A DNA stretch of 64,000 bases from Dehalococcoidia bacterium (lineage in GTDB: Bacteria; Chloroflexota; Dehalococcoidia; UBA6926), in NCBI GenBank assembly GCA_965237465.1, contig OZ250138.1, positions 1,340,110-1,404,109 on the forward strand, given 5' to 3'. The notes under the pieces are model-generated. The model was not told the origin of the DNA. It ran no database searches and saw nothing but the letters and a program-made list of their open reading frames with translations. The translations under genes were made by a program, and so were the position numbers. Of this stretch, positions 2,660 through 55,037 are shown one piece after another (position 1 is the stretch's first letter; each line of letters starts with the position of its first letter).

Positions 2660-3511
2660 GTGGTCCGATTATGCACGCTTGGGAGGCCCGCCGTGGTTCT
2701 GGTTGATCCTGGCGCCCGGATATTCCTGGTCAATGTCGGCGTCAACGCCTCGCACGGCGCCCTGCGCAGCCCCATCTTTCCCGACGGAACCTTTGAGTTT
2801 CTGCCCATCCCGGAGGAGCGACGGCTGTGGTCGCCGACGCTCCCCGCCTACCCCAAGCTGGCCGCGTTCAATGACCCCGACAAGACCCTCGCGGACTACG
2901 CGCCCGTTTCGCGGTGGAATGACCGCCTGCATGATGATCCCGAGTTTCGCACGTTTACATACGGCGACAACCCGCAAACAACGGGCAGAGGGGCCGGTCT
3001 CAAGCAATGCGGGCCCGGCGACTACATTCTCTTCCTTGCCCGTCTTGTTCAGCACGACGGCGAGGCGAAATTCCATGGCCCGCCGGGATTCTACCTGGTT
3101 GGTTTCTTCCGTGTGTCGGAAGTTCTGCAGGACGTCAAAGCCTTCCCCACAGGGCGGGAATTCGCCGTGTTCGGGGCGAACGCCCACATCCGCCGCGCCG
3201 CCTACCACCCAAAGGACGCGCTTAACCTCTTCTGGGTCTGGAAGGGTGATCCGGACGCCTCGCTGAGACTGCCAATGGCCGTTCCTGTTAGCCGCTCGTT
3301 GGCGGAGGCGACGCTCCTCGATGCGCGTGGGCGAGACTGGAAGTGGGATACCGGTCGCTCAGAGTTGCAAACCATCGGCTCCTACACGAGATCCGGCCGC
3401 ATGGTCATTGACCCAGCCGCGCCGGGCGGGAAAGTTCGGGCGAACCGGCTCTGGCGGGCGATCATCGACATGAACCCTAACGTGACCGTTGGTGGAAGAG
3501 TCGGGGCGTAG
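2660..3511 (+). CDS. hypothetical protein (possible PUA/EVE-like beta fold); start uncertain
   Basis: Long ORF 2402..3511 whose 5' part is antisense to queG. First plausible in-frame starts after the queG start are GTG 2660 or GTG 2693. No family recognised. Segments GDYILFLARL...GFYLVGFFRVSEV resemble PUA-like strand patterns only weakly. Confidence 0.4.
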   Translation: MVRLCTLGRPAVVLVDPGARIFLVNVGVNASHGALRSPIFPDGTFEFLPIPEERRLWSPTLPAYPKLAAFNDPDKTLADYAPVSRWNDRLHDDPEFRTFTYGDNPQTTGRGAGLKQCGPGDYILFLARLVQHDGEAKFHGPPGFYLVGFFRVSEVLQDVKAFPTGREFAVFGANAHIRRAAYHPKDALNLFWVWKGDPDASLRLPMAVPVSRSLAEATLLDARGRDWKWDTGRSELQTIGSYTRSGRMVIDPAAPGGKVRANRLWRAIIDMNPNVTVGGRVGA

Positions 3512-3581
3512 GGGGTCACATCATTCGGGATGAGCCGCGCAACGGCGGCAGCCCGCCCCTATAATTGAATACGAGCGCCCC

Positions 3582-7602: not shown

Positions 7603-7752
7603 TGTCAACCTAGACACCCCTTTCCATCTCCCATAGTGCTGATAGATCATACATACTATAGAACATGTGTGGCAATGTCTGGAGCAGTTTGGAATTAAAT
7701 CAGCGCTCCCTTGACACCCTATCCGCGCCCCCCATCCCCTATCATTAGCGCC

Positions 7753-9516
7753 ATGACCACCCCACACACCAACAAACTCCACTTCGGTGACAATCTCCCC
7801 ATCATGCGGGAGCACATCCCCGATGAGTCCGTCGATCTCATCTACCTTGATCCGCCGTTCAACTCCAACGCCACCTACAACATCCTGTTCCGCGAGCGCG
7901 ACTCCTCAGAGTCCGCCGCCCAGATACAGGCCTTCGACGATACATGGCACTGGAATACGGATGCTGAATGGCAATACCAACAGACCGTGACTAAAGGCCC
8001 CCGCAGACTCGCCCAAATGCTTGAGGCTATGCGAACGTTCCTCGGCCAGAACGACATGATGGCCTACCTGACCATGATGGCCCCGCGTATGGTGGAACTC
8101 CATCGCGTCCTCAAGCCCACCGGCAGCATCTACCTCCACTGCGACCCCACCGCCAGCCACTACTTGAAGCTGCTGCTTGACGCGGTGTTCGGAGCTGCAA
8201 ACTTTCGTAATGAAATCATTTGGCGTCGGACTGGCACGCACAACAAAATACAGCGTTTTGCTCCGATCCATGACACGATCTTGTTCTACGCGAAGAGTGA
8301 AGCGTACCAATGGCAAAATATTAAAAGGCCCTACATGAGCGGTCATGTTCAAGAATACTTCGTAGAAGATTCCCAAGGGTGGCGAACCAATTACTACGGG
8401 AATGTGCTGACGGGGTCAGGCACAAGGAATGGAGAATCCGGAAAACCCTGGATGGGTTTCGATCCAAGTGCGAAAAATCGACATTGGGCAATTCCCCGCA
8501 GACTGTTGCAGGATGTGGACGAGGATCTGTCGACGCTATCGCAACATCAAAAGCTCGACCGACTTTACGAGTTGGGCTACATCAAGATCCAAGAAGGCCA
8601 AGCTTGGCCAGTATATGAGCACTACATTGCACCAGACGACGGTCAACCTGTTCCCGATATATGGGCATACCAGCCCTACACGGACGGATCGGTCTTTGGG
8701 AGTGAGAGTGGAATCGACGCAGATGTGCGTTGGCTGTCACCAACTGACCAAGAGCGCCTCCATTACCCCACCCAGAAGCCCCAGGCCCTGCTTGAACGCA
8801 TCATCTCCGCGTCCAGCAATGAGGGCGATATCGTCCTTGACCCATTCTGCGGTTGCGGCACCGCCATCGCCGCCGCGGAGCGACTGAAGCGCAAATGGAT
8901 TGGCATCGACATCACCCATCTCGCCATCTCTCTCATGCGCAACCGACTGCGTGCCTTGCCAGTGGATCGCCTGTCCGACTATGAGGTCATCGGATCTCCT
9001 GCGGACGTTGAGAGCGCCCGCGCCCTCTCCAGGGAGGGCGGCAACACGGGCCGCTACCTGTTCGAATACTGGGCCCTCGGCCTTGTAGAGGCCCTCCCCG
9101 CGCGTGACATGAAAAAAGGCGCTGACGCAGGAATCGATGGCTACATCAACTTCTTCGACGGTAAATCTACCAAGGCAAAGACCGTAATTGTGCAGGTCAA
9201 GAGCGGTAAGGTGGGCAGCAACATAGTCAGAGACCTTCGTGGCGCGATGGAGCGCGAACGAGCGGAAATGGCTTTGCTCATCACACTTGAGCCACCCACC
9301 AAACCCATGGAAAATGAGGCAGTCACCGCTGGATTCTACACGTCGGAAGCCTTCCCGGCCCTCCGATACCCTCGCGTCCAGATCGCCACCATCGAAGACA
9401 TCCTCACCGGCAACGGCCCCCAAATACCCCGAGGACTAGGCCTCTCCGAAGACCCCACATTCCGCCGCACCCCCCGCCAACGCCGGGCGCAGGGCAGTTC
9501 CCGGCGGATGATTTAG
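7753..9516 (+). CDS. beta-class N6-adenine/N4-cytosine DNA methyltransferase fused to a C-terminal Mrr-like (PD-(D/E)xK) restriction endonuclease domain
   Basis: DPPF motif (LIYLDPPFNS) near the N-terminus and a later YPTQKP...DPFCGCGT SAM-binding region, the order typical of beta-class MTases (PF01555-like). C-terminal about 120 aa (GADAGIDGY...VIVQVKSGKVGSNIVRDLRGAME...ALLITL) match the Mrr catalytic fold (PF04471-like). Start at ATG 7753 chosen by alignment with the paralog at 58395..59858. Alternative ATG at 7711. Confidence 0.8.
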   Translation: MTTPHTNKLHFGDNLPIMREHIPDESVDLIYLDPPFNSNATYNILFRERDSSESAAQIQAFDDTWHWNTDAEWQYQQTVTKGPRRLAQMLEAMRTFLGQNDMMAYLTMMAPRMVELHRVLKPTGSIYLHCDPTASHYLKLLLDAVFGAANFRNEIIWRRTGTHNKIQRFAPIHDTILFYAKSEAYQWQNIKRPYMSGHVQEYFVEDSQGWRTNYYGNVLTGSGTRNGESGKPWMGFDPSAKNRHWAIPRRLLQDVDEDLSTLSQHQKLDRLYELGYIKIQEGQAWPVYEHYIAPDDGQPVPDIWAYQPYTDGSVFGSESGIDADVRWLSPTDQERLHYPTQKPQALLERIISASSNEGDIVLDPFCGCGTAIAAAERLKRKWIGIDITHLAISLMRNRLRALPVDRLSDYEVIGSPADVESARALSREGGNTGRYLFEYWALGLVEALPARDMKKGADAGIDGYINFFDGKSTKAKTVIVQVKSGKVGSNIVRDLRGAMERERAEMALLITLEPPTKPMENEAVTAGFYTSEAFPALRYPRVQIATIEDILTGNGPQIPRGLGLSEDPTFRRTPRQRRAQGSSRRMI

Positions 9517-15874: not shown

Positions 15875-17866
15875 ATGATCGGCGTCGACACAGGCGGCAC
15901 GTTTACTGACCTTATCCGCTACGGCGACGACGGCGTAATGCGGATGATCAAAATCCCCTCCACGCCCGCCGACCCGGCGCAATCCTTCCTTGAGGGGATT
16001 CGCGAGATCAGCGAGGAACTCGCCAACGAGGACATCGTTCACGGCTGCACCGTCGGAGTAAATGCCGTCCTTGAGCGGCGCGGGGCGCGGACAGCGCTCG
16101 TGACAACGGCGGGGTTCGCGGATGTCATTGAGATTGGCCGTCAAACCCGCCCTGCGCTCTACGACCTGCACGTTCGCCGGCCAACCCCCCTCGTGCCCCG
16201 GAACCTGAGATTCCAGGTTGATGAGCGCGTTTCCTCAGAGGGTGTCGTCCTGCGTGCGCCGAGCGAGACGGACATGGAAGCCATCGCCGATGAAATCGCC
16301 AGATCCGGCGCGGAATCGGTCGCTGTTGTCCTGCTCTTCTCATTCCTCAGGCCAGAACAGGAGGGCCGCGTTCTGGAAGCGCTCCGCCAAAGGCTGCCTA
16401 CAGAAACGCAGATCTCCGTCTCCAGCGAGATTCTTCCTGAGTTCCGCGAATACGAGCGAACGTCCACGACCGTAATGAACGCCTACATCGCGCCGGTCAT
16501 GCAAACCTATCTGGGCGCGATTGATGAATCCATTCCCAATCCGGTTCGCATCATGTCGTCCGCGGGCGGCAGCATGACAATCGGCCAGGCGCGACGGCTG
16601 CCCGTGCATACCCTATTAAGCGGGCCAGCCGGGGGCGTGGTCGGGGCTTTTGAGGTGGCGAGAGCGGCGGGCATTGACCGGATCATGACGCTAGACATGG
16701 GCGGCACGTCCACGGATGTGTCCTTGTGCGAAGGCGAGATTCAGCGCACTTCGGAGGGGGCAATCGGCGGACTCCCCGTTCGCGTCCCGATGGTTGACAT
16801 TCATACGGTAGGCGCCGGCGGCGGCTCGCTCGCGTCCTTCGACGCGGGCGGCGCGTTGGCCGTCGGGCCGCAATCCGCCGGGTCCATCCCCGGTCCGGCT
16901 GCGTATGGGCGGGGCGGCGGCGCAACAGTCACGGACGCCAACATTATCCTGGGCCGGCTTCCTGCAGACAGGCCGCTCGCCGGCCGCCTTCAGTTGGACG
17001 GAAACGCAGCCCGCGACGCCTTCCAATCCATAGGCGGGACGCAGGGCATGAGCGCGGAGGAGTTGGCCGACGGCGTGGTCCGGGTGGCCAACGCGAACAT
17101 GGAGCGCGCCCTGCGCGTCGTCTCGCTTGAACGGGGCCATGACCCGCGCGACTTCACGCTGGTCGCGTTTGGCGGGGCCGGGCCGCTGCATGCATGTGAG
17201 CTGGCCGATGGCCTGGGCATGAAGCGCGTGCTTGTCCCCCGTTTACCGGGAGTGCTCTCGGCATGGGGAATGCTTATGGCGGACGTTACTCGGGATTACG
17301 CTCGGACTGTGTTGTTGAACACCGAAGATTCTTCTCCCGACTCACTGTCTCAGCTGCTCGCCGAGATGGAGACCGGCGCGCGGCGCGACTTGCAGGCCAC
17401 AGACCTGCCGGATTCCAGCGCCGTCCTCACCGCGTGGGCGGACATTAGATACGTCGGTCAGGGCTATGAGCTCTCCATACCTCTCGTCGCGGCCGATGGA
17501 CTGTCATTGCCGGACCGTTTTCACGCCGCGCATCAACGTCGATTCGACCACAGCCACGCAGGCTGGCCGACAGAGATTGTCACTTTGCGGCTGCGCGTAA
17601 CTATCAGCGTCCCCAAGCCTGAGACGCGTGTGGAGTCCGACGATGGCCCCGACAGCTCACACGCGGTACTCGGCACGACCCGGATCATGTTGGATACGGG
17701 CGAGGCAACTGTGCCGGTAATCAACCGCGAGGCGCTCAGGCCGGGCAACACGATCAGTGGGCCAGCCGTCCTGACCCAAACGGACGCGACGACCTGGCTC
17801 CCGCCGGAGTGGGGCGCGCGCGTCGATGGCCGCCTGAACCTCATCCTGGAGAGGACAGGATCGTGA
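15875..17866 (+). CDS. hyuA: hydantoinase/oxoprolinase family protein, A subunit
   Basis: 663 aa. N-terminal MIGVDTGGTFTDLI (ASKHA fold) and the full hydantoinase_A architecture. Confidence 0.85.
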   Translation: MIGVDTGGTFTDLIRYGDDGVMRMIKIPSTPADPAQSFLEGIREISEELANEDIVHGCTVGVNAVLERRGARTALVTTAGFADVIEIGRQTRPALYDLHVRRPTPLVPRNLRFQVDERVSSEGVVLRAPSETDMEAIADEIARSGAESVAVVLLFSFLRPEQEGRVLEALRQRLPTETQISVSSEILPEFREYERTSTTVMNAYIAPVMQTYLGAIDESIPNPVRIMSSAGGSMTIGQARRLPVHTLLSGPAGGVVGAFEVARAAGIDRIMTLDMGGTSTDVSLCEGEIQRTSEGAIGGLPVRVPMVDIHTVGAGGGSLASFDAGGALAVGPQSAGSIPGPAAYGRGGGATVTDANIILGRLPADRPLAGRLQLDGNAARDAFQSIGGTQGMSAEELADGVVRVANANMERALRVVSLERGHDPRDFTLVAFGGAGPLHACELADGLGMKRVLVPRLPGVLSAWGMLMADVTRDYARTVLLNTEDSSPDSLSQLLAEMETGARRDLQATDLPDSSAVLTAWADIRYVGQGYELSIPLVAADGLSLPDRFHAAHQRRFDHSHAGWPTEIVTLRLRVTISVPKPETRVESDDGPDSSHAVLGTTRIMLDTGEATVPVINREALRPGNTISGPAVLTQTDATTWLPPEWGARVDGRLNLILERTGS

Positions 17867-19506
17867 ACATCGACGCCGTTTCGCTGGAAGTCTTTCGTAA
17901 CCTTTTCGCCTCAATCGCAGAGGAGATGGGCGTAGCGCTCGGCCGAACAGCGTGGTCGCCAAACATCAAAGAGCGTCGCGACTACTCATGCGCGATATTT
18001 GACGCCAGCGGCAGGCTCATCGCTCAGGCGGAACACATTCCGGTGCACCTCGGCGCCATGCCCGCGTCCGTGCAGGCCGCCATCGAACGCTTTGACTCCT
18101 TTGAGCCGGGCGACATCATCGCCTTGAATGACCCGTATCTGGGCGGCACCCACTTGCCGGACCTCACGCTGATCTCGCCAACATTCGCGCCGTCCGAGCC
18201 ACATGATGGAGGCTCGGACGCGCTGGCCGGATTCGTAGCGACGCGCGCGCACCATGCCGACGTGGGCGGCATGGCCCCCGGCTCCATGCCCTCCTCCACA
18301 ACCATCTACCAGGAGGGCTTTATCATTCCGCCGATACGCCTCTCCCGCGCAGGCGTCATGAATGAAGAGGTCATTGAGCTGTTCATGCGCAACGTGCGCA
18401 CACCGGAGGAGCGGCAGGGGGATCTAGCCGCCCAGATCGCCGCCAATCACGTCGGTGAGACGCGATTCACCCAACTGATTTCCCGATACGGCAGTGAGAC
18501 CGTCGATGGCCATGCGGACGCGCTGATCGCCTATGCGGAGAGAATAGTTCGACATGCTCTGCGAAGCATCCCCGCGGGCGCCTACACGTTCGCCGACACT
18601 ATGGAGCCGCCAACGCCGGACTCAGACCCGCCCCGCATCGCTGTCACCATTACCAGCGATGGCGAAGGTTCCTTGACGGTGGATTTCTCAGGCACGTCGC
18701 CGGAGCAGCCGTTGAGCAATATCAACGCCGTTCGAGCAGTGACGGTCTCCGCAGTGCAGTACTGCGTACGATGCCTTGCTGGTCCGCGCGCGCCCGCGAA
18801 TCACGGCTCATTCGCCTCCGTAAACGTCATCACGCCGGAGGGATCCCTCGTGAATCCCCGACCACCTCGCGCCGTCGCGGCCGGCAACGTCGAAACGTCG
18901 CAGCGCATCGTTGACGTGGTGCTGGGCGCGCTTGCACCCGTTCTTCCGGACATTATTCCCGCCGCAAGCCAGGGCACAATGAACAACGTGACCATCGGAG
19001 GGACGGACCCCCGCACTGGCCACCCATTCGCCTATTACGAGACCCTTGCCGGCGGCGTCGGGGCCGGTCCTAACGGATCGGGCGAGTCCGCCATTCATAG
19101 CCACATGACCAACACGATGAACACGCCGGTCGAGGCGCTCGAGTTTCAGTTCCCGTTTCGCGTTATTGAATACGGGATCCGCCGCGAATCAGGCGGCGCG
19201 GGGAGATTCCGGGGCGGCGACGGACTGATAAGGACAGTCGAGTTTCTCGCGGACGCAACTGTTTCTCTCCAGACGGAGCGCCGATCTCAAGGACCGTGGG
19301 GCCTCGCAGGGGGCGATGACGGCGCGCCCGGACGCAACTCATTGCGTACAATAGAATCGCAAACGTATGATTCGATTCCGGCGAGCACGACGCTCAATGT
19401 TGCCGCCGGGGACTCGCTTCGGATTGAGACGCCGGGCGGCGGCGGATGGGGGCAACCTCAATCACCGCCCACTGACGAGGAGGGAATCAACCGCAGCCAT
19501 GACTAG
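17863..19506 (+). CDS. hyuB: hydantoinase B/oxoprolinase family protein, B subunit
   Basis: GTG start at 17863 overlaps the hyuA TGA (GTGA). Translation VNIDAVSLEVFRNLFASIAEEMG... is typical of hydantoinase_B. Confidence 0.85.
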   Translation: MNIDAVSLEVFRNLFASIAEEMGVALGRTAWSPNIKERRDYSCAIFDASGRLIAQAEHIPVHLGAMPASVQAAIERFDSFEPGDIIALNDPYLGGTHLPDLTLISPTFAPSEPHDGGSDALAGFVATRAHHADVGGMAPGSMPSSTTIYQEGFIIPPIRLSRAGVMNEEVIELFMRNVRTPEERQGDLAAQIAANHVGETRFTQLISRYGSETVDGHADALIAYAERIVRHALRSIPAGAYTFADTMEPPTPDSDPPRIAVTITSDGEGSLTVDFSGTSPEQPLSNINAVRAVTVSAVQYCVRCLAGPRAPANHGSFASVNVITPEGSLVNPRPPRAVAAGNVETSQRIVDVVLGALAPVLPDIIPAASQGTMNNVTIGGTDPRTGHPFAYYETLAGGVGAGPNGSGESAIHSHMTNTMNTPVEALEFQFPFRVIEYGIRRESGGAGRFRGGDGLIRTVEFLADATVSLQTERRSQGPWGLAGGDDGAPGRNSLRTIESQTYDSIPASTTLNVAAGDSLRIETPGGGGWGQPQSPPTDEEGINRSHD

Positions 19507-20095
19507 GAATCCACTCTTCCGCATCCTCTCGGGCGGCATCCTGTTGCTGTCGTTGGTGTTTGTCGCCATTGCATGCTCAACGGCGCCTGAGGAGGAGTCT
19601 GTCGAAACGTCGCCCGAGACGCCAACCGATGCACCCGCAGGGCCGACGGTCGGCGGCAGCGTCGGCGACCTCGCGCCGGACTTCTCGCTCTCTGCGACTG
19701 ACGGCCGTATGGCTTCGCTGACTGAATTCAAGCAAGCCAACCAGCCCGTTGTCGTGTATTTCTTCGCAACCTGGTGACCAACCTGTCGGTCCGAGTTGCG
19801 GGCCCTCAAGGAAATCTACCCCCAGTATTCTGATCAGGTCGCGTTTATCGGCGTCGACGTTGATCCCTCTGAGAGCGCTGAAAAGATCAGCGCATACGCA
19901 AGCGATCAGGGATACCCCTGGCCCATGGCTGAGTATGATCCCGACATCCTGGTGGACTATGGCATCCGATCCCAGGCCTCAAAAGTGATGATCGGCGGCG
20001 ACGGCGTGATCACATTCCGCGCCACGTCCAGCAAGACTCGTGACGACAAGTGGCACGAGGTGTTCCAGGAGGTCATCGCGCAATCTGCCGGATAG
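19499..20095 (+). CDS. candidate selenoprotein: TlpA/ResA-like thioredoxin-fold lipoprotein with U-P-T-C redox motif (in-frame TGA at 19775-19777)
   Basis: ATG 19499 (GAGGAGGG 15 nt upstream) overlaps the hyuB stop. Signal peptide MTRNPLFRILSGGILLLSLVFVAIAC. Codons around the TGA read VVVYFFATW-TGA-PTCRSELRALKE, the position where thioredoxin-like proteins carry WCPxC. The same frame continues 106 codons to TAG 20093-20095 (...GYPWPMAEYDP...VMIGGDGVITF...). Confidence 0.65.
19788..19804 (+). promoter_or_regulatory. candidate SECIS-like hairpin (GGUCCG-AGUUG-CGGGCC), starting 11 nt after UGA 19775
   Basis: 6-bp stem (one G-U pair) with a 5-nt loop. Position relative to the UGA matches bacterial SECIS placement. 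Also present in the paralog with a compensatory change. Confidence 0.4.
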
Positions 20096-20126
20096 TGGCG
20101 TAGGGAATCTCAAACATGACGCCCCA

Positions 20127-20151
20127 GTCATTCCGGCTCTCGCCGGAATCC
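20127..20151 (+). repeat. REP-like palindromic element copy (gtcATTCCGGCtctcGCCGGAATcc)
   Basis: 8-bp stem ATTCCGGC/GCCGGAAT. Same family as the copies at 21225, 47854, 52117 and 52200. Confidence 0.7.
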
Positions 20152-20230
20152 AGTGCTTCGGCTGCGGGCAGATTCCGCCTAGGCCCCTTGGCGGCAACGG
20201 CCAGCAGCATTCAAATGTAATGGACTCCTT

Positions 20231-21163
20231 TTGCATACAGAAAATCGCGAAATGACAAGCGCACAAATGTCCTCCGTCCTGCGCTCTTTCATGCGATGGC
20301 GGCGTCCGGGGATCATCACAGTTGCGCTCATTATCGTGGCCATCGCCGCGGCAGCAGCAGGATGCACGACCGCCGTGCAGACTTCGCCGGACGACAGCGG
20401 CCGGACGACGCTTGCGCCCACGTCCCAGGTTCAGATCACCACCTTGCCCGCCCCGGTAACAGGAGAGCAGGAGCCCGGAGACTCCGCCGCCTCGCCGACG
20501 GTCTCTCCAATGACCCCAACGCCCCCGACCGGGCAACGCTCAACCGCGGTCGCACCGGAACCGGCGGCCACCGATTCAAGCGGCGCCGGGAGTGCGGAGC
20601 CGACGGAGACGCCGGCGCTCCCAACGGCCACGCCCGCAAACGTCCCTGTGGAACCGTCCCCAACGAGCATCCCCCCGCCGCCGACAGCAACAACTGCCCC
20701 ACCCACCTCCACGCCAATTCCACTGCCGACAGGTCATCGCGTCGGCAACAGCGCCCCTGATTTCACGGTGGAAACCGTTGATGGCGTGACCGTCTCTCTA
20801 ACTGACTACAAGCAGGCCAACCAGCCCGTCGTTGTCTACTTCTTCGCAACCTGGTGACCAACGTGCCGGTCCGAGTTGCGGACCCTCAAGGACGTCTATC
20901 CCGACTACGCCGATCGCGTCGAGTTCATCGGCGTGGGCACGGATTTTGGGGAATCCGCAGCCGACGTGCGACGCTTTTCCAATGCGGAAGGCTACCCGTG
21001 GGACATGGCGCCGTGGGAATCATCCATCGTCGCCGACTATCGAATACTGAGTCAGTCATCCAAGGTAGCCATTAACGGCGACGGCGTCATCACATACCGC
21101 AGCGGATACGGCAGTCTCTCCTCCCGTGACTGGCGCAACATCTTCGAGGACCTGCTCGACTAG
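20231..21163 (+). CDS. candidate selenoprotein paralog: TlpA-like thioredoxin-fold lipoprotein with U-P-T-C motif (in-frame TGA at 20855-20857); start uncertain
   Basis: Signal peptide ...ITVALIIVAIAAAAAGC. Long Pro/Thr/Ala-rich linker, then HRVGNSAPDFTVETVDGVTVSLTDYKQANQPVVVYFFATW-TGA-PTCRSELRTLKD... continuing in frame to TAG 21161-21163. 5' end could be ATG 20231, 20252, 20267 or 20291. Confidence 0.6.
20868..20884 (+). promoter_or_regulatory. candidate SECIS-like hairpin (GGUCCG-AGUUG-CGGACC), starting 11 nt after UGA 20855
   Basis: Same stem-loop as at 19788, but the G-U pair is replaced by a U-A pair (G to A in the 3' arm). Confidence 0.4.
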
Positions 21164-21224
21164 GAAAACCCGAACCGCCGCGTCGGCAGGGGCGAAAACG
21201 CCCAACCTCGTCCGCTACGCCACC

Positions 21225-21249
21225 GTCATTTCGGCGAAAGCCGGAATCC
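21225..21249 (+). repeat. REP-like palindromic element copy (cgtcATTTCGGCgaaaGCCGGAATcc)
   Basis: Stem with one U-G wobble and a GAAA tetraloop. Lies in the intergenic space between the selenoprotein 2 stop and the stop of the giant helicase gene. Confidence 0.7.
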
Positions 21250-21281
21250 AGCCGGGCGCCGGCGCACTCATTCCCCCGACA

Positions 21282-24200
21282 CTACTCATTCGGCTCGAAC
21301 ACCAGCTCCGGGATCACGACTTCCCAAGAATCGCACTGTAGGCGGTCCCGGTACTCAGGCTCCGAACGCTCACGGTCCCAGCCAGCGATGGCGAAGACCG
21401 TGGCATACGAGCAGCGCATGCCAGACGGCGGCTCGAAACCACCGGCAAGCTGTCCCACCACCGTCCCGTTGCGATCCAAGAGCTCCCACCGACTTGACCT
21501 GAGCCGCAAATCCAGCAGATCGCCCGGCGAGAGCGAGGCAATGGCGTGATGAACCGGATGGCCTGAGGCTTGGTATCCCGCATAGCTCAGAAAGACGTCG
21601 CTCAGGCTGAGTCGCCGATAACGGCGAGCGAGTTCCGGCGCAGGCGGCGGAAGGTTGAGGGGCTCCCGGCGCAGCACCGATGGCGCCGCCCGCAAGGCGC
21701 CCTGGAGCGGGTGCGCCCGTGCAAAGCTCGCGAGGGCTAAAGTCTGCCGCGCACGGGTCATGGCCACGTAGTACAGTCGGCGCGGGGCATCCGCATCCCC
21801 GTCGTCGCCAATGCGATCCCAGGCTCCGTCCAGCACAATCACGTGGTCGAACTCCAGGCCCTTGGCGCGATGGGCGGTGAGCAGCAGCAGCCCGCGTTGG
21901 CGGCGCCGTACTTCCCGCGCCCACTCGGCCAGCCATTCAATGCACGCATCAACCGGTGTTTCGGCGCCTCCGGTTTCCATCGCGTACTCGGTTATCGCTT
22001 CTTGAAGCAGTTCAATCCAGGGGCCTGGAGATTGGTTGCCCACCCAGTCATTCAGATCCCCGCTCTTCACCAGGAGGGAATCCCGCCCACGCAGCCAGTT
22101 CACAAGAGCCCTGGTCTCACGCAAATGCCAGATGCCGGTGAAATCCTCGTTTGCCATCTGCACGGGGATACCCTCAAGTTCGCAGAGGCTGCGCACCGCA
22201 TCCAGATAGCTCCATTCACGCGCCACCACCGCGCAGGCGGACCACTCCCAGTCAGGAGCGAGGCCGGACAATCGCTTCAATTCTGCGACGACCACCTGTG
22301 CTTGGGAGATGGGAGTGTCGCCCGTCTGTAGTATTTGGACCTGGCCACGAGCCACCGGGTCTATGGTGGTCCACGCGCCGCCGGGCGGGTCCTTCGTTCG
22401 ACTCTGGTTTACGCCGATGGGATGCCCGGCCTTCATTCGGCCCCGAGCCGGTTCAATCACAGCATTGGCCGCCTTGATGATGTGCCCTGTGGAGCGATAG
22501 TTGTCTGTCAGGAAGGCGGGCTTTGCGCCATAATCCTCTTCGAAGCGCTGGATAAACGCCGGTGACGAGCCATTGAAGGCGTAGATGTTCTGGTCATCGT
22601 CGCCGACGGCCAGCAGACCGAGCTTGTCGTCCGGATCGGAAAGCGTTCTGCCTGCCAAGGCGGAAATCAGCTCATATTGATCCGGGCCAATGTCCTGGTA
22701 CTCGTCCACCAGAATCCATCGGAACCCCGACAACAGTCGTTCTCGATACTCGTCCGCTTCATCGGGCGGCAATCCTTCTCCTCGCAACATAGCCGTCGCC
22801 TCCTGAAGCAACTTCTGGAAATCCGTGTCCTCCGGACGATTGGCAGGCCCCGTGAAACTGGCGCCCACCAGCCGCATGGCGAGGGCGTGACAGGTGAGCA
22901 CGATCACTCCGCGGGCGTCGTCGCCTATCAGCTCTGCGAGGCGGCGGCGAATCTCGACTGCGGCATGCCGGTTGTAGGCAAGGGCCACGATGGAGCGGGG
23001 ATTCTCTCGCTTGACCCGTATCAGATAGGCGATGCGATGCACCAACACCCGCGTCTTGCCTGACCCGGGACCGGCCAGCGCCAGCACGTTCGTCTGTTCC
23101 CGGTCGTCCGTCACAATGCGGCGCTGGTCAGGATTGTTCAGGCTTTCGACGATCGTTCGCCACGATTCCGGCGTGGTCTGCCGCGATGTCTCCCTCTCTC
23201 GATCCGGCAGCCAGCGGCGCAGAAAGTCTTCTCGACGACTGCTGAAATAGTCCACGATCAGGCGTAGGGCATCGGCCATGGCCTGAAGCCCCCGCCGTAC
23301 GAACTCCGCCATCACGTGGATCTGCAGCACCTGTTCGTCGTAATGGAGCTTGAGGGATGCAAAGTCGGTCTGGGCAAATCCGCGCCTCTCCGGCTTCAAG
23401 CGGATGGTCATAGCCGGGCGGAAAACTGCCAGGCCCTTGTTCAGCCGAATGACCTCTTGCTCATGCAGCCAGAGCAGGGCGCGATCCATCAGCTTGGCGG
23501 GAGCCCTGTCGGTGCTCCCCAGCAACATGTCAGACTTGATCGCCTCCAGCAGCTTGCCCAGCGTCGTCTCTGCCAGCAGGTCCGTGCCCCGACTCCCCTG
23601 AGGCAGGCATGTGAGTAGGTGCTGCAACAGCCGCCCGGCTCCTGCGCGCCGCAGCTCGGCGGTCTTCTCAAGGTCTCCCCACTCCCGCCGTAATGTGACG
23701 TAGATCGTGTCCGCATCACGCCCCCGAACGCTGAGGCTTCCCCCGTCGCCCCCATCGCCGCGCCCGTCAGCGGCAATGCTGCGGATGATGCGCCTTACGC
23801 GTTCCGGCAGCGCGTAAGAATAACCTTCGTCCTTGAGTCGTTGAGTGGCGAGGCGGAGATGCAGCGGGTAGGATTCGCCCTTGCTCATATCGGGGGCCAT
23901 CTCGCGCATGAGGGAAATCAGGCCTTGCTCCAGCGCCGCCGCCTCATCGAGTCGTCTCCGGGAGGAGTGTTCCATCCTCCCTGTATGGACAAAAGCGGTC
24001 AACACCGTATCGTTGCTGGCGATGCCTAGTCGCTCCAGGTCGTAGAGCGCGGCCCGCACTCCCTCTGAGTTCAGGCCCGACACGGTCATCAACTCGTCAG
24101 TGGTGATTCCTTCGTCCGCATTCGCCTCGATGAGCGTCTCGGAAATGGTCGCCAGCTGGCGGCGATAGGCATGGGCGATTTCGACCTTTCCAAGCTTGAC

Positions 24201-26369
24201 GCGGGCTTCTTCCTTTGAGTTCACCCGCAAGGAGGACGGGAACACCTGCACCTGGTTCTCTTCTCGGGTCAGCAGCTCGGCCTGTTCCAGCCAGGACACT
24301 GCCGTGCGAACCCGGTTGTCATCGGTTGCGGAATCTCGCACGAATGCGTTGTCGTCGTCCTCTCCAAGGATCTCGCCGGCGGTGGCGACTACTTCGCCGT
24401 CCAGGCGCCCCTTTCGATCAAAATTCCGCAGCGCCCTGAGCACTCCGTGGATTTCCCGTCGCGTGAGACGGGAACGCGCCGACATGCCGAACTGCCGCTC
24501 CACGTCGTCCGGCGTGTAGAGCAGCACACAGCGGGCCGCCTGTTGATCACGTCCGGCACGGCCCGCTTCCTGAAGGTAGTTCTCCAAAGAACCGGGGATG
24601 TCGGCGTGAATAACCACCCGTACGTCCGGTTTGTCTATGCCCATGCCAAAGGCGTTGGTGGCGACTATTGCCCGCAGATCGCCGCGGATGAAGCTCTGTT
24701 GGACATCCTTTTTGGTCTCCGACGGCAGTCCCGCGTGGAAGTAGTTCGCCTGCATCCCTTTTGCCTGCAAGAACGCCGATATCTCTTCGGCCTGCCGCCG
24801 CGTCGCGCAATAGACGATGGCGCCGCCCGGTTCATCCCTCGGCAGATCGGCCTCCAGGATCTGGTGGATATGAGCCAGCTTTTCTTCGTTGCTGGTCTGC
24901 GCCACAACAAATTCTAGGTTGGCGCGTTGGGCGCCGCCGTTGAAGACCTTCAGTTGGATGCCCAACTCTTTCCGGAAGTAGTCCACGATCTCCGTCTCCA
25001 CGTCCGGCTTGGCGGTCGCGGTCAGACACAATACGGGAGGCGGCGGTTCCGTTCCCGACCTCTCACGGATGAAGCGCCCCACGTAACGGTAATCTGGCCG
25101 AAAGTCATGTCCCCACCGTGAGAGGCAATGAGCCTCGTCCAGCACCCAGCCGCCAATCTCCCGTTGCGCCAGAACACGACGCACGGACACGCTACGGAGT
25201 TGCTCCGGAGAGATGATAAGGATGCCGGCATCACCCAGCCGCACCCGATCCAGGGCATCGGCCCGTTCCGGCATGGACAGTAGCCCGTTGATGGTGACGC
25301 AGGAATCGATTCCGCCTGCCTTGAGCCCCTCCACCTGGTCAGCCATGAGGGCAACCAGAGGCGAGATCACAACGGTCAGCGCGCCGGTCTTGTCGTATCG
25401 GGAAAGGGCCGGCAGCTGGTAGCAAAGCGATTTTCCAGCGCCGGTGGGCAGGATTGCCAGGACGTGCTCTTTGCCCAACGCCGCTTCGACGACGGACTGC
25501 TGCATAGGCTGCCCGGCATCTTCGTCCTCCGGCTCAGGCCGGAAGCTGTCAAAGCCGAACCAGCGGGCGAGCTCCTTGCGGGCATCGTGCTGTTCCCGAC
25601 ACCAGTCGCAAGCGCGATCAACGCAGGCTGTATCGCGCAAACGGCGGATCAACCGCCCTGCCTCGGGAAACTGATGCCGAACCCAGGGAGGCAAGACCGA
25701 ATTGCCCCCGGACACCGACAGCCACGCCAAGGCGTATGCAAGCGCCCACCCGTACTTGCCTACATCCTCCATGACCTCGCGCGTGTGCGTCTGGCAGGCG
25801 TTTCCGGTCAGACGTCTGCGAATCGCATCATGCGCGTCCGCGTCGGATGGCTTTGGCGCACCTCGTATTGACGTGAATATCTGGTCGAATCCTGCGCCAT
25901 CATCCGCGCTGGTCAGCCAATGCCAGGCCATCAACAGGTCCGCTTCACCATCGCTCAGCGCCCTTTGCTGATTCTCGAATACCTCGAGCGTCAGTCTCGC
26001 ATCCAGTTCCGGATCGTTAATGCGCCCACGTTTAAGTTGTCCGTCCTGGTAATGCTTCACCAGGTGGTGATAGGGGTTGCGGGGGAAGGCCAGGGGATTA
26101 AGTCTAAGCGTGTCCACTGCCGGCAGCCGCAGTAACCGCAAGCTGGGATTTGCGGCTTGAAGGTGGGGCACATCGAAATCTACCAGATTGTGGCCCAGCA
26201 GAAAGTCCGCTCCATCGGCAAGGGCGTCCAGATCGACCAAAGCCTGGTCAAGGCTGCTGCCTGTTCGGGGGAACGTCAGGGACTGATCAGTATCCGGGCG
26301 CACTCCCGCGAATGCGTGGATGCGGCTGTCCCGGACCCCGACTTCCAGATCCACCGACAGGGGCCGCAA
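21282..26369 (-). CDS. giant multidomain protein: DEDDh 3'-5' exonuclease + RecQ-family SF2 helicase + UvrD/PcrA-family SF1 helicase
   Basis: 1695-aa uninterrupted ORF (TTG start at 26369; no ATG/GTG further upstream in frame). Residues 1-150: DnaQ-like exonuclease motifs (SVDLEVGV, GHNLVDFDVPHL). Residues ~290-640: RecQ motifs (ILPTGAGKS, VLDEAHCLSRWGHDFRPDY, VLCLTATA, IVATNAFGMGIDKPDVRVVIH, QEAGRAGRD). Residues ~1090-1695: UvrD motifs (ALAGPGSGKT, ILVDEYQD, VGDDDQNIYAFNGS, DNYRSTGHI, LLTAHRAKGLEFDHVIVL, YVAMTRARQ). Confidence 0.85.
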   Translation of the reverse strand: MRPLSVDLEVGVRDSRIHAFAGVRPDTDQSLTFPRTGSSLDQALVDLDALADGADFLLGHNLVDFDVPHLQAANPSLRLLRLPAVDTLRLNPLAFPRNPYHHLVKHYQDGQLKRGRINDPELDARLTLEVFENQQRALSDGEADLLMAWHWLTSADDGAGFDQIFTSIRGAPKPSDADAHDAIRRRLTGNACQTHTREVMEDVGKYGWALAYALAWLSVSGGNSVLPPWVRHQFPEAGRLIRRLRDTACVDRACDWCREQHDARKELARWFGFDSFRPEPEDEDAGQPMQQSVVEAALGKEHVLAILPTGAGKSLCYQLPALSRYDKTGALTVVISPLVALMADQVEGLKAGGIDSCVTINGLLSMPERADALDRVRLGDAGILIISPEQLRSVSVRRVLAQREIGGWVLDEAHCLSRWGHDFRPDYRYVGRFIRERSGTEPPPPVLCLTATAKPDVETEIVDYFRKELGIQLKVFNGGAQRANLEFVVAQTSNEEKLAHIHQILEADLPRDEPGGAIVYCATRRQAEEISAFLQAKGMQANYFHAGLPSETKKDVQQSFIRGDLRAIVATNAFGMGIDKPDVRVVIHADIPGSLENYLQEAGRAGRDQQAARCVLLYTPDDVERQFGMSARSRLTRREIHGVLRALRNFDRKGRLDGEVVATAGEILGEDDDNAFVRDSATDDNRVRTAVSWLEQAELLTREENQVQVFPSSLRVNSKEEARVKLGKVEIAHAYRRQLATISETLIEANADEGITTDELMTVSGLNSEGVRAALYDLERLGIASNDTVLTAFVHTGRMEHSSRRRLDEAAALEQGLISLMREMAPDMSKGESYPLHLRLATQRLKDEGYSYALPERVRRIIRSIAADGRGDGGDGGSLSVRGRDADTIYVTLRREWGDLEKTAELRRAGAGRLLQHLLTCLPQGSRGTDLLAETTLGKLLEAIKSDMLLGSTDRAPAKLMDRALLWLHEQEVIRLNKGLAVFRPAMTIRLKPERRGFAQTDFASLKLHYDEQVLQIHVMAEFVRRGLQAMADALRLIVDYFSSRREDFLRRWLPDRERETSRQTTPESWRTIVESLNNPDQRRIVTDDREQTNVLALAGPGSGKTRVLVHRIAYLIRVKRENPRSIVALAYNRHAAVEIRRRLAELIGDDARGVIVLTCHALAMRLVGASFTGPANRPEDTDFQKLLQEATAMLRGEGLPPDEADEYRERLLSGFRWILVDEYQDIGPDQYELISALAGRTLSDPDDKLGLLAVGDDDQNIYAFNGSSPAFIQRFEEDYGAKPAFLTDNYRSTGHIIKAANAVIEPARGRMKAGHPIGVNQSRTKDPPGGAWTTIDPVARGQVQILQTGDTPISQAQVVVAELKRLSGLAPDWEWSACAVVAREWSYLDAVRSLCELEGIPVQMANEDFTGIWHLRETRALVNWLRGRDSLLVKSGDLNDWVGNQSPGPWIELLQEAITEYAMETGGAETPVDACIEWLAEWAREVRRRQRGLLLLTAHRAKGLEFDHVIVLDGAWDRIGDDGDADAPRRLYYVAMTRARQTLALASFARAHPLQGALRAAPSVLRREPLNLPPPAPELARRYRRLSLSDVFLSYAGYQASGHPVHHAIASLSPGDLLDLRLRSSRWELLDRNGTVVGQLAGGFEPPSGMRCSYATVFAIAGWDRERSEPEYRDRLQCDSWEVVIPELVFEPNE

Positions 26370-26996: not shown

Positions 26997-27974
26997 CTAG
27001 TCAGACGCAATCGCGCAGATCACATGGACGCTAAGCCGCCACGAATCGGTTACTGCGCCGACTTCCTTGGCCACCCCTGTCCATGAGGGAGACTTCTCTC
27101 CCGTCAGCCCGCTTGGATACGAGGCCACGATCGCTACGCCCGCAGGAATCTCGGCATCGGCAGAACCGATCGCTCCCAAGACTCGCGCGCCGCCGCCCGT
27201 CGCAACCTTGCCTCCGGCGCATCGGACAGTCATGGCCTTGTCGGTGCTGTTCGCTGCCGTGACCTGTACCACGATCTCAGACCCGCTTATGCCTGGAGGT
27301 CCCTGTTGCCCTTGAGGACCATGAGGCCCTGCCTCGCCCTTCGGGCCTGCAACACCACGCTGGCCTGCAGATCCGGGAGCCCCTTCAGGTCCCCTGGGGC
27401 CTGGAGGTCCTACATTACCCGCCGGTCCTACCGGCCCTACTTGCCCTTGAGGCCCCAGCGGTCCTGGCGGGCCCTGTGGTCCAGTTTCACCCTGCAGACC
27501 CTGCGGTCCTTGAGGACCTGTGTCGCCCTTTTGTCCGGAGTCCCCGATCTGTCCCTGCGAACCAACCGGACCCTGCGGACCTACTGGCCCTGGAGGTCCA
27601 CCGGGATCGCCCTTGGCTCCATCCTGGCCAGGCGTTCCGATATCGCCCTTCTCACCCTGAGGCCCCTGAGGTCCCTGGGCTCCCTGGGGACCCTGTAGTC
27701 CCTGTAATCCCTGGATTCCCTGTGGCCCTCCCGGGTCACCTTGGTTTCCCTTGTCTCCATTGTCACCTTGCGATCCCTGTGGTCCTGCGGAGCCTGCCGG
27801 ACCTGCCGGTCCTATTGGCCCCTGAGAACCTGCAGGGCCAATGGCGCCGGCGGGACCCTGGGAGCCTTGGTCCCCTTGAGGACCGGCATCGCCTGCGCAA
27901 CCAACAGCCACAAGTGTGACTCCTATCAAAATCGATATGACGCCGAGTCGCTTCCATCCGAAACCGACGGTCAT
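26997..27974 (-). CDS. collagen-like triple-helix repeat (GXY) lipoprotein with C-terminal globular domain
   Basis: Signal peptide with Cys ([14 protein letters not shown]). Then about 70 uninterrupted Gly-X-Y triplets rich in Pro/Gln ([31 protein letters not shown]...). Then a ~100-aa non-repetitive C-terminal domain. Confidence 0.8.
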
Positions 27975-47853: not shown

Positions 47854-47879
47854 CGTCATTCCGGCGAAAGCCGGAATCC
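47854..47879 (+). repeat. REP-like palindromic element copy (cgtcATTCCGGCgaaaGCCGGAATcc, consensus form)
   Basis: Perfect 8-bp stem and GAAA loop. Translating it gives the VIPAKAGI artefact at the 5' end of track ORF 47726..48484. Confidence 0.75.
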
Positions 47880-47941
47880 GGGCGACCCGCCGACGACGCT
47901 ACGGATGGTCACGCGCAGACGTGTCCCGTACGCTCTCACAC

Positions 47942-52111: not shown

Positions 52112-52116
52112 CGCCT

Positions 52117-52142
52117 GGATTCCCGCTTTCGCGGGAATGACG
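52117..52142 (-). repeat. REP-like palindromic element copy in inverse orientation (ggATTCCCGCtttcGCGGGAATgacg)
   Basis: Reverse complement is cgtcATTCCCGCgaaaGCGGGAATcc, consensus with a CGGC to CCGC stem variant. Forms the left terminal inverted repeat of the composite element 52117-52225. Confidence 0.7.
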
Positions 52143-52155
52143 GGTGGACAGCGTT

Positions 52156-52193
52156 TGCAGAGGCGTTGTGCGTGTGGCGCAGGGCCTTTGGCG
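52156..52193. repeat. perfect 14-bp inverted repeat hairpin (TGTGCGTGTGGCGC...GCGCCACACGCACA) with 10-nt loop
   Basis: Arms 52156-52169 and 52180-52193 are exact reverse complements. Sits between two oppositely oriented REP-like copies. Confidence 0.85.
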
Positions 52194-52199
52194 CCACAC

Positions 52200-52225
52200 G
52201 CACAGTCATTCGTCATTCCGGCAAA
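52200..52225 (+). repeat. REP-like palindromic element copy (cgtcATTCCGGCaaaaGCCGGAATtc)
   Basis: Preceded by a tandem duplication of GTCATTC (52194-52200). Confidence 0.7.
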
Positions 52226-52263
52226 AGCCGGAATTCATGTCCTCGCTTCGTAGATCCCGCCCT

Positions 52264-53367
52264 TCAACCCTCGTACACGCTCGTGTCCGGGAAGAGATCA
52301 ACCCATGCGAACCAGAAGGATGGAGTTGCGGGGAACTGGGTGAGGCGCGCGCCAGTCAACGGTCCGCCTGTCGCTTCCCCGCCGGAGGTCGTCCACATGC
52401 TGCCTGTCTCGGCGTCCCGCATCAGAAGACTCTTGTCACCGGAATCCTCAACACTTTCGAAGGTCAACAGCCTGCCATCAAGAGTCCGGCGCCAGGCCAC
52501 CGCTGCGCCCGCCGCGGCATCATATGTGACGACGATGTCCTCATCGCCAAGCGTGTCGTTCACGATGGGCGACTCAATCAGCGCAGCATACGGGTAGGCC
52601 CGTTTGGCTGTCCCGACCTCCAGCCCCAGGACAAACTCCTTGGCGGCGAGACGGTCATCCTGAACCAGTCGCCCCAGGACGCCGGACCGCGAGTCAGCGT
52701 AATAGGAGTCATATGTATCCACTCGGTAGAGGCCCTGTTTGTCCAGCACGAGGGTCTGCGGATACAATTCCTCCCACGCCTCCCACGCCATGAGCCGCGA
52801 CGGGATCAGGTCAAGAACGGCGCCTTCATGCGAGCCAGCAATGGCCCTGCCATACGCCTGGCTCCACTCGGAGTCCGTCTGGTCATCAAACATCACCAGG
52901 TTGTTGAGGATCAGCTTTCCGGAGACGCCGAAGGTCAGCGTGTCGCCGTCCACCTCTCGGCCATACACGATGGCCGTGTAGCACAGGGGTCACCACGTAA
53001 CGGCGATGGGCGCGCCACCGAGGACGTCATTGACGATCTCATGCCTGCTGAGCATGGCCGTGGGATAGGCGCGCGCCTCGCCGTCGATCTCCACGCCGAT
53101 GACCGGCTCCTCCGCCTCCATCCACGCCTCAGCGTCGGCGGCGTTCACGAACTCCGGATCTCTGATCGCGGGAATCGCGTCCTTGCTGGTCACCGTGAAC
53201 ACCTGCAGATTCCGATCAACGGCGCGCGGCGTGGCTGCCGCATCGCGCTCATCGGCAACCGGATCAACCGTATACGGAACCTCAATCTCATCCTGGCCAA
53301 TGCCGCCGGGATTGCAGGCTAGCGCGACCAGGATGGCCACGCCCACCGCAGCAATGGCGGTTGCCAT
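52264..53367 (-). CDS. candidate selenoprotein: DUF3179 family exported protein with U-P-L-C motif (in-frame TGA at 52990-52992)
   Basis: Track ORFs 52990..53424 and 52264..52968 are in the same frame, separated only by TGA. Translation ...HEIVNDVLGGAPIAVTW-TGA-PLCYTAIVYGREVDGDTLTFGVSGKLILNNLVMFDDQTDSEWSQ... spans the conserved CPLC region of DUF3179. Start at ATG 53365-53367 gives the signal peptide MATAIAAVGVAILVALAC. Confidence 0.6.
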
Positions 53368-53615: not shown

Positions 53616-55037
53616 GTGGCTGTGGACGACGTAGAGTTGCATGACGCTTGCGGCGTCGTCGGCGCGTATCTCCCGCACGGCGACGCAGCCCGAGTAACTT
53701 TTTTCGGTATCTTCTCCCTTCAACACCGCGGCCAGGAAAGCGCTGGCATCGCCACCGCCGATGAAAACGGCAGAATCCACCTCCACCGGGCCCTTGGCCT
53801 TGTCAATGCCGTCTTTGATGAAGAGACGCTGGACGTCCTGCCAGGCAAGCTGGCCATCGGACACACCCGATACTCAACCACCGGCTCCTCCACGCTAGCC
53901 AACGCCCAGCCGCTCACCGCCAAGGGGCCTCTTGGCGAGATATTGGTCGCCCACAACGGCAACATCGTCAACTCCGAGCTCCTCCGCAACGAGGCAATTG
54001 AGTTAGGCGCCGACTTTGTCACCACGACGGACACGGAAGTCATCGCGCAGCTTATTGCCGTGTCCCCCGGCGATAGGTGGGAGGACAAGATCGCCTTTGC
54101 GATGCGAAGGTTGGAGGGCGCCTACAGTCTGACCATCCTCACAAAGGACGCAGTTTTTGTGGTCCGGGACCCGCACGGGTTCAGGCCTCTCTGCCTTGGA
54201 CGCCTGGATGGCGGATGGATGGCGGCGTCAGAGACGTGCGCGCTGGAGAATGTGGCCGCCGAGTTTGTGCGGGACATTGAGCCCGGCGAGATCGTGCGGA
54301 TTGACAGGAACGGCGTCACGTCAACAATGTCGCAACGTCGCGAGACGCGCGCGCTCTGCATCTTTGAGCACATCTATTTCTCCCGCCCGGATTCCCTTCT
54401 TGAGGGTCGGCGCGTCTACATGAGCCGCGAGGCGATGGGCAAGGAGCTGGCGCGAATTCACCCAGTGGAGGCGGACATCGTGAGCGCCGTTCCGGATTCG
54501 GCGACGGCCGCCGGCATTGGCTACGCCCACGGCTCCGGCATCCCGTTCTTTGAGACCATGGTTAAGAATCGGTACGTGGGGCGCACGTTCATTCATCCGG
54601 ACCAGCGGCTGCGCGACCAGGGCGTGCGCCTGAAGCTGACTCCCATGAAAGAAGTCATTGAGAACAAGCGCCTTGTAATGGTCGACGACAGCATCGTGCG
54701 GGGCACAACGACAAGGCGCGTGGTGGACCTTCTCCGAGGCGCAGGCGCAAAGGAGATACACCTGCGCGTGTGCGCGCCGCCCATCCGTTTCCCGTGTCAC
54801 TACGGCATCGACATGCCAAATCGCGAGGAGCTGCTGGCGGCCAATTCCAGCGTGGAAGAGGTGCGGGACGAGCTTGGCGTCGACAGCCTGGGCTTCCTTG
54901 ACGTCCCAGCCCTGTACAGGTCCGTCGCGCAGGAGGGACCGGGGTTCTGCGTGGCGTGCTTCACGGGGGAATATACGGTGCCCGTACAGGTCCAGCTCGA
55001 TAAATTCTCATTGGAGCGCGTCTCCCTGCGTGCCTGA
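53616..55037 (+). CDS. purF: amidophosphoribosyltransferase with short N-terminal propeptide
   Basis: The catalytic Cys codon (TGC 53649) is preceded by in-frame GTG 53616/53622 or TTG 53637 and no ATG, implying a ~5-11 aa propeptide as in B. subtilis PurF. GAT domain CGVVG, PRT domain, and a 4-Cys cluster in the C-terminal half. Confidence 0.8.
   Translation: MAVDDVELHDACGVVGAYLPHGDAARVTFFGIFSLQHRGQESAGIATADENGRIHLHRALGLVNAVFDEETLDVLPGKLAIGHTRYSTTGSSTLANAQPLTAKGPLGEILVAHNGNIVNSELLRNEAIELGADFVTTTDTEVIAQLIAVSPGDRWEDKIAFAMRRLEGAYSLTILTKDAVFVVRDPHGFRPLCLGRLDGGWMAASETCALENVAAEFVRDIEPGEIVRIDRNGVTSTMSQRRETRALCIFEHIYFSRPDSLLEGRRVYMSREAMGKELARIHPVEADIVSAVPDSATAAGIGYAHGSGIPFFETMVKNRYVGRTFIHPDQRLRDQGVRLKLTPMKEVIENKRLVMVDDSIVRGTTTRRVVDLLRGAGAKEIHLRVCAPPIRFPCHYGIDMPNREELLAANSSVEEVRDELGVDSLGFLDVPALYRSVAQEGPGFCVACFTGEYTVPVQVQLDKFSLERVSLRA

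Follow-up and report, generated by a model that had tools for sequence, protein, structure and literature searches.

Tandem UGA-interrupted thioredoxin-fold genes in a Dehalococcoidia bacterium: probable UxxC selenoproteins with a compact SECIS-type hairpin

The tandem gene pair and its setting

The window, i.e. the whole 64-kb stretch of DNA that was analysed, contains two tandem plus-strand genes (copies 1 and 2, Table 1), each with an in-frame TGA followed by a short hairpin. A hydantoinase A/B (hyuA, hyuB) pair lies directly 5' of this tandem pair, the ATG of copy 1 (19499-19501) overlapping the 3' end of hyuB by 8 nt (hyuB stop, TAG 19504-19506). The frame of copy 2 is open from TTG 20231 and closes with TAG at 21161-21163; by comparison with orthologues (P0069, P0070) its start is likely ATG 20252 or ATG 20267, rather than the TTG. 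An initial annotation, made from the window sequence, had described the W-TGA-PTC arrangement of copy 2 and the same-frame continuation to 21163, both of which are borne out. The local sequence around the TGA reads VVVYFFATW-TGA-PTCRSELR[A/T]LK in both copies, which are nearly identical over approximately 90 nt around the UGA.

Table 1. Positions of the gene pair, its elements and other features of the window
Feature	Position	Strand	Description
Hydantoinase A/B pair	15875-17866, 17809-19506		directly 5' of the tandem genes
Copy 1 gene	19499-20095	+	tandem paralogue without the long linker; ends TAG; gene calls in L080 and L081
Copy 1 in-frame UGA	19775-19777	+	probable Sec; W-TGA-PTC arrangement as in copy 2
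Copy 1 SECIS-type hairpin	19788-19804	+	GGUCCG-AGUUG-CGGGCC; U·G at third pair
Copy 2 gene	20252-21163	+	thioredoxin-fold (AhpC/TSA-Redoxin, TlpA/ResA-like) probable selenoprotein, predicted exported, lipobox-bearing; read through TGA 20855
Copy 2 signal peptide (predicted)	20252-20365	+	lipobox-like AAAG-C, Cys38 codon 20363-20365; read from translation
Pro/Thr/Ala-rich linker	~20366-20731	+	copy 2 only; ~120 residues between signal peptide and domain
Copy 2 in-frame UGA	20855-20857	+	first Cys position of WCxxC active site; probably read as Sec
Copy 2 SECIS-type hairpin	20868-20884	+	GGUCCG-AGUUG-CGGACC; 17 nt, 6-bp stem, 5-nt loop, within R-S-E-L-R-T codons
Possible lower helix around copy 2 hairpin	20861-20867 with 20890-20895	+	tentative; predicted fold
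Helicase ORF	21282-26369	-	single 1695-aa ORF
Collagen-like protein	26997-27974	-	325 aa
DUF3179 gene	53424-52264	-	interrupted by TGA 52992-52990
Methylase genes with fused nuclease	7711-9516; 58395-59858	+; -	N6/N4 DNA methylase with Mrr_cat; with HNH
REP-like repeat copies	20127-20153, 21225-21251, 47855-47881, 52115-52141 (-), 52212-52238		palindromic repeat

The products of both genes are predicted to be exported, on the basis of signal-peptide and lipobox-like features in their translations. The signal-peptide-like N terminus of copy 1 ends in a lipobox-like VAIAC, and relatives have LAVAC or LAVGC where copy 2 has its lipobox-like Cys. The linker, which the initial annotation had correctly assigned to copy 2 only, is conserved in the copy 2 orthologues P0066-P0070.

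The hyuA-hyuB-Sec-Sec gene order is kept in close relatives and is absent at distant loci of the Sec form. A functional link to hydantoinase A/B was considered and rejected, the synteny being limited to close relatives and no neighbour being conserved family-wide. The minus-strand ORF listed in Table 1 as a helicase has DEAD/Helicase_C and UvrD-helicase domains (Pfam hits to its orthologues as called in L080 and L081), and the region is called as two genes in L081 and L084. Other Dehalococcoidia loci carry three tandem Sec-type copies (L004, 2457-4091) or two (L006, 3127-3936), each copy with its own hairpin; from these layouts, tandem amplification evidently recurs independently in distant members of the group.

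A REP-like palindrome, GTCATTYCGGC-NNNN-GCCGGAATCCAG, occurs five times in the window, against none expected by chance, with one copy just 3' of each thioredoxin-like paralogue. Its fold is a hairpin of 8 bp capped by four loop nucleotides (GAAA, TCTC or AAAA); at 52115 the stem is a compensatory CCCGC/GCGGG. Spurious ORFs reading VIPAxAGIQ arise from the repeat. Other features of the window include a bacterial collagen-like protein, whose sequence has four stretches of collagen triple-helix repeats (Pfam Collagen, E 9e-34), and the two methylase genes with fused nucleases, which may be restriction-modification or defence genes.

The UGA codon and the domain that crosses it

When Cys is placed at the TGA, the copy 2 translation matches Pfam AhpC-TSA (E 2.6e-18) and Redoxin (E 1.5e-13), with both matches crossing the TGA. 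The PF00578 scores are 66.6 bits for copy 2 and 65.5 bits for copy 1, against a gathering cut-off of 26, and a single AhpC-TSA/Redoxin domain crosses the UGA in both (E ~1e-18). In each copy the motif at the CxxC site would thus be a UxxC, W-U-P-T-C. The closest solved structures are those of ResA, DsbE/CcmG and TlpA-like thioredoxins; the corresponding NCBIfam scores for copy 2 are below the curated cut-offs (ResA, 53.7 versus 170; DsbE, 37.8 versus 123; TlpA, 21.6 versus 230).

The UGA of copy 2 aligns with a Cys in P0003, P0005, P0007 and P0018, and in 60 genome loci. A protein search returned full-length Cys forms (WCTTC, WCPVC, WCPTC), together with dozens of clusters that stop exactly at ...YFFA[ST]W, and matching C-terminal fragments; the clusters with this ending come from genomes of ~2 Mb, one being source-labelled Dehalococcoidia bacterium. 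The pattern used in the scan of genome contigs contained 'WC', returning mostly Cys forms, which served as the control set, with a second pattern returning Sec forms. Among the 79 loci of the genome scan, 18 have TGA at the Cys position, all of them from Dehalococcoidia, SAR202 or Chloroflexota, and 60 have Cys; the motifs of the Sec forms include W-U-TTC, F-U-GTC and T-U-GVC. TGA is also found at the Cys site in four close relatives and in three metagenome contigs, from a metagenome search that yielded 4 loci; these contigs were not used to define the RNA structure.

Downstream of the UGA the frame is, judged by codon substitution, under purifying selection: dN/dS values against orthologues are 0.09-0.29 (0.21-0.29 for copy 2), similar to those in the 45 codons 5' of the UGA. 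This result, and the continuity of the domain, bear on the proposal that the UGA is a true stop, such that the locus would encode separate N- and C-terminal small proteins, the latter starting from the loop TTG, or decaying pseudogenes. Public gene predictions are in line with such a stop, in that they split every family member at the UGA, e.g. into P0001 and P0033, or into P0070 and a 95-aa ORF. Against it, one thioredoxin-fold domain crosses the stop, neither half being a complete fold, the UGA falls exactly on the catalytic Cys, and over 30 diverged sequences retain the interruption, with the low downstream dN/dS values given above. The specificity of the hairpin for UGA forms, described below, likewise speaks against termination, which is considered extremely unlikely.

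One relative departs from the single-domain layout. In P0006, a 682-nt ENA contig, the C-terminal half of a first domain reads on uninterrupted, across a Pro/Thr-rich linker, into a second domain, which ends ...YFYATW (UGA); the complete fusion would carry two selenocysteines.

The hairpin, its homologues and the Cys controls

In copy 2 the stem begins at the 11th base after the UGA, following 10 intervening bases (20858-20867), with arms at 20868-20873 and 20879-20884 and an AGTTG loop at 20874-20878; the hairpin sequences and the 11-nt placement given for the two copies by the initial annotation agree with this. The isolated 17-mers have predicted folding energies of -9.2 kcal/mol (copy 2, z -3.4) and -8.6 kcal/mol (copy 1, z -2.8), and 43-nt segments of -14.1 and -13.5 kcal/mol, respectively. 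In contexts of 40-50 nt, z values for both copies are only -0.5 to -1.6. From the window alone, the hairpin is not clearly beyond chance; since the longer folds are unremarkable, the two copies cannot separate selection on RNA from coding constraint, and the significance of the hairpin comes from its homologues.

The single stem difference between the copies is G19802 (copy 1) versus A20882 (copy 2), opposite U19790 and U20870, giving U·G in one and U-A in the other. This change had been described as compensatory, and taken as a sign of a functional RNA element. The difference itself is real, but it is not a compensation: only one side has changed, both states pair, and the substitution is non-synonymous, GCC (Ala) in copy 1 becoming ACC (Thr) in copy 2, so that comparison of the copies alone is weak evidence for selection on RNA. 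Moreover, copy b of the relative L087 has a G-A mismatch at this same pair. The conclusion that the argument was meant to support is nevertheless upheld by the homologues.

Stem statistics were calculated for 31 distinct UGA-containing cassettes from Dehalococcoidia/SAR202 (186 stem cells). In every Sec form RNAfold predicts, in an identical register after the UGA, a stem of 6-7 bp closed by AGUUG or AGUUA, and RNAalifold independently recovers the same helix from the alignment. Paired cells make up 96.8% of the 186, versus 72% in column shuffles, none of 500 shuffles reaching the observed value, and versus 29-54% in slid registers. Both sides have changed in four of the six pairs (e.g. G-C/C-G, C-G/G-C, G-C/U-A and C-G/U-A), and the covariation score is 0.63, compared with 0.20 in shuffles; because the 31 cassettes are phylogenetically related, the shuffle statistics overstate their independence. 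The initial annotation had proposed a covariation analysis over more homologues, naming loss of the pairing, or of its position relative to the UGA, as the outcome that would count against a functional element; the opposite was found.

Distinct stems include GGUCCG/CGGRCC, GCGCCG/CGGCGC, GCUCCG/CGGAGC and GCGCUG/CAGCGC, and also CCGCCG/CGGCGG, GCUCUG/CAGAGC, CUGUUG/CAGCAG and UUGCUG/CAGCGA. In the loop, the A, U and U of alignment (A6) columns 35, 37 and 38 never vary, and the G of column 36 hardly does. The exceptions, in addition to the L087 mismatch, are one stem mismatch in the second copy of L006, a 6-nt loop in L015, and an AUUUG loop, which lacks G at positions 1 and 2, in copy b of L086. 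The possible lower helix (Table 1) is weakly supported, with 69% of its cells pairing across the 31 homologues.

The stem lies in codons for [R/T]-[A/S/V]-E ... [R/Q]-[R/S/A/T/Q], and it might be that the hairpin, with no RNA function, is a by-product either of coding constraint on a C-R-[AS]-E-L-[RQ]-x-L peptide or of gene conversion between the paralogues. The peptide is indeed conserved and the genome GC-rich, the window copies are closely alike around the UGA, and the only stem difference between them alters an amino acid. A codon null, in which the peptide was fixed and synonymous codons were redrawn either by window codon usage or uniformly, gives the 6/6 stem in only 0.6-3% of draws, not exceeding 3% for any peptide variant, while it is observed in 29 of the 31 sequences. 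Furthermore, silent third bases vary in step with partner positions that are non-synonymous: the third base of codon 5 is U alongside CAG (Gln) at codon 8 and C alongside CGG (Arg), and that of codon 4 is G where codon 9 reads GCC or ACC, and C or U where it reads CGC, AGC, CGG or CAG. The loop codon, where it encodes Leu, is always TTG or TTA, TTR accounting for 75 of 655 Leu codons among window genes; L015 alone has Phe (TTC). A by-product is also at odds with the relatives L086 and L087, in each of which the copies differ in stem sequence yet keep the pairing.

The Cys forms provide a matched control. None of the 60 Cys homologues from the genome scan has the 6/6 stem in the UGA register, the mode being 1/6, and none of 64 overall, including a syntenic Cys orthologue, has the full stem. 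Homologues with similar peptides (CRAELQH, CRPELRR and CRAEFRV) have broken stems, which likewise speaks against a by-product. In the syntenic orthologue (L092), where hyuA-hyuB is followed by a single WCTTC copy, 2/6 pairs form and the fold is -3.3 kcal/mol; this Cys-type gene (3001-3567), which lacks the hairpin and has a DUF3179 gene nearby, makes a natural Sec/Cys orthologue pair with the window genes, suited to work on how Sec is gained or lost. Other near Cys forms (L093, L094/L095 and L008) have 4-5 of 6 pairs, and their stems look decayed. As judged from 31 versus 64 sequences, the full stem is found in UGA forms only, never in Cys forms, and a by-product without RNA function is accordingly rated highly improbable.

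The hairpin was compared with the published model for bacterial SECIS (bSECIS) elements, which specifies 3-9 nt in the apical loop, 4-16 bp in the upper stem, 16-37 nt between UGA and loop, a minimum free energy of no more than -7.5 kcal/mol, and a G in the first or second loop position, usually followed by G or U (PMC13188914). Copy 2 falls within these limits: it has a 5-nt loop and a 6-bp stem, as do 30 of 31 homologues; its loop, A-G-U-U-G, has G at the second position; its spacing of 16 nt (20858-20873), identical in all homologues, is at the lower limit; and the 17-mers of both copies are below the energy threshold. Rfam searches, of the whole window at gathering thresholds and of 19400-21300 at permissive E-values, returned no SECIS family.

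Probable Sec decoding and relation to known systems

A third window gene, encoding a DUF3179 protein, is also interrupted by UGA. Its match to PF11376 (E 2e-92) covers profile positions 1-292 of 292 across the stop, the motif at the UGA is VTW-U-PLC, the N terminus has a lipobox-like VALAC, and 13 nt beyond the UGA there is a hairpin, CGGCCAU-CGUGU-AUGGCCG; a spurious plus-strand ORF (52144-53322) overlaps the gene. DUF3179 (UxxC/T) figures among the selenoprotein families listed in PMC13188914, and Dehalococcoidia metagenome-assembled genomes are among the most selenoprotein-rich of bacteria, with 46-49 such genes (PMC13326102). The interrupted DUF3179 gene and the richness of the lineage lend indirect support to Sec decoding by this organism, the genome of which is presumed to be Sec competent.

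Hairpins 3' of stop codons can promote read-through in general, and a further proposal is that the UGA is read without Sec, whether through an altered code (Trp/Gly), or through hairpin-stimulated near-cognate read-through or Cys insertion. It draws some support from searches for the Sec machinery: Pfam scans of ~50 ORFs of the 64-kb window, and of the fetched loci, gave no selA, selB or selD, and ARAGORN gave no tRNA-Sec in the window or any fetched locus. (An AIRS-domain protein at 54874-56067 was considered as SelD and rejected, its purF-purM-purH context identifying it as PurM.) Against the proposal, TGA terminates 16 of 37 Pfam-supported window genes and is thus an ordinary stop, which excludes a change of code; the position requires a redox-active Cys or Sec; the hairpin fits the SelB-type bSECIS model, including in its loop G-U and its spacing; and both the known selenoprotein richness of the lineage and the similarly interrupted DUF3179 gene favour Sec. 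Read-through without Sec is therefore regarded as very unlikely.

The UGA very probably encodes Sec in both copies, with the 17-nt hairpin acting as a bacterial SECIS element. The initial proposal of a UxxC selenoprotein paralogue with a SECIS-type hairpin is thus supported, by the pairing in homologues, the specificity for UGA forms and the covariation at synonymous sites. Each copy would be translated as one protein, with Sec at the attacking position of the UxxC motif; the hairpin, with G-U in its 5-nt loop, would recruit SelB·GTP·Sec-tRNA(Sec) to the ribosome while it pauses at this codon. The encoded proteins would be lipoproteins, or membrane-anchored extracytoplasmic thiol-disulfide oxidoreductases of the TlpA/ResA/DsbE type, the Pro/Thr-rich tether of copy 2 holding its domain away from the membrane. 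For both copies, we infer SelB binding, selenium insertion, export and substrate.

In the Sec forms, Ala (GCN) is found with Arg or Gln (Cxx), and Ser (UCN) with Ser, Thr or Ala (AGC, ACC, GCC). Residues +5 and +9 after Sec would co-vary in this way, through RNA pairing, because the SECIS element sits in the codons for the helix after the active site. A broader proposal is that these are exported, membrane-tethered selenoproteins specific to Dehalococcoidia/SAR202, occurring in tandem (2-3 copies) and sometimes as fused two-Sec forms, which together could act as an extracytoplasmic thiol-disulfide relay based on selenium, the short and long Pro/Thr tethers giving different reach from the membrane, and RNA pairing dictating residues +5 and +9. 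This composite picture is tentative and, taken as a whole, rather doubtful; if true, the setting of residues +5/+9 by RNA pairing would be a clear example of how RNA structure can limit the evolution of a protein sequence.

Several consequences would follow from the selenoprotein assignment, although no new mechanism is revealed. The gene pair and its Dehalococcoidia/SAR202 relatives, each at present called as two fragments, should be annotated as single selenoproteins. The compact bacterial SECIS described here, with its 17-nt length, minimum spacing, covariation and matched Cys controls, should be useful for training SECIS predictors, and the case illustrates how an RNA element within a coding region may shape the choice of both codons and amino acids.

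Comparison with the Escherichia coli fdhF SECIS is instructive. That element, as reviewed in PMC8659212 (which cites Liu et al. 1998), is a 40-nt hairpin that can be reduced to a functional minimum of 17 nt; this upper stem-loop lies 11 nt from the UGA, has G23/U24 in its loop and carries a bulged U17. The window hairpins are similar: they too are 17-nt stem-loops inside coding sequence, they start at the 11th base after the UGA, and their apical loop presents G-U. By contrast, they have no bulged U, their loop is AGUUG rather than GGUCU, and their lower helix is weakly supported.

With respect to ResA, DsbE (CcmG) and TlpA, which gave the best structure and NCBIfam matches, the window proteins share the WCxxC site, the fold and an N-terminal signal for membrane anchoring. 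They differ in the probable presence of Sec in place of Cys and in scores far under the family cut-offs. Their genes lie beside hyuA, hyuB and a gene for a RecQ-UvrD-type helicase, with no cytochrome c maturation or CcdA/DsbD genes nearby.

The closest precedent lies among selenoproteins. The table of prokaryotic selenoproteins in a 2026 review (PMC13188914) includes a Prx-like thiol:disulfide oxidoreductase (PF00578, UxxC/UxxU), graded 'predicted with high confidence', and the GOS selenoproteome contains 'Prx-like 1' (pfam00578, UxxC) in abundance (PMC2398784); neither window copy is covered by an NCBIfam selenoprotein model. Judged by domain and motif, both genes belong to this already known class (PF00578, UxxC), with which they share the AhpC/TSA-Redoxin fold, Sec for the first Cys of a CxxC motif, many Cys homologues and a bacterial SECIS-like hairpin after the UGA. 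By contrast with the Prx-like selenoproteins described to date, the comparison being one of descriptions, the present proteins come from the Dehalococcoidia/SAR202 clade, have a lipobox N terminus, and occur in tandem arrays of 2-3 copies and, in at least one relative, as a fused two-domain form.
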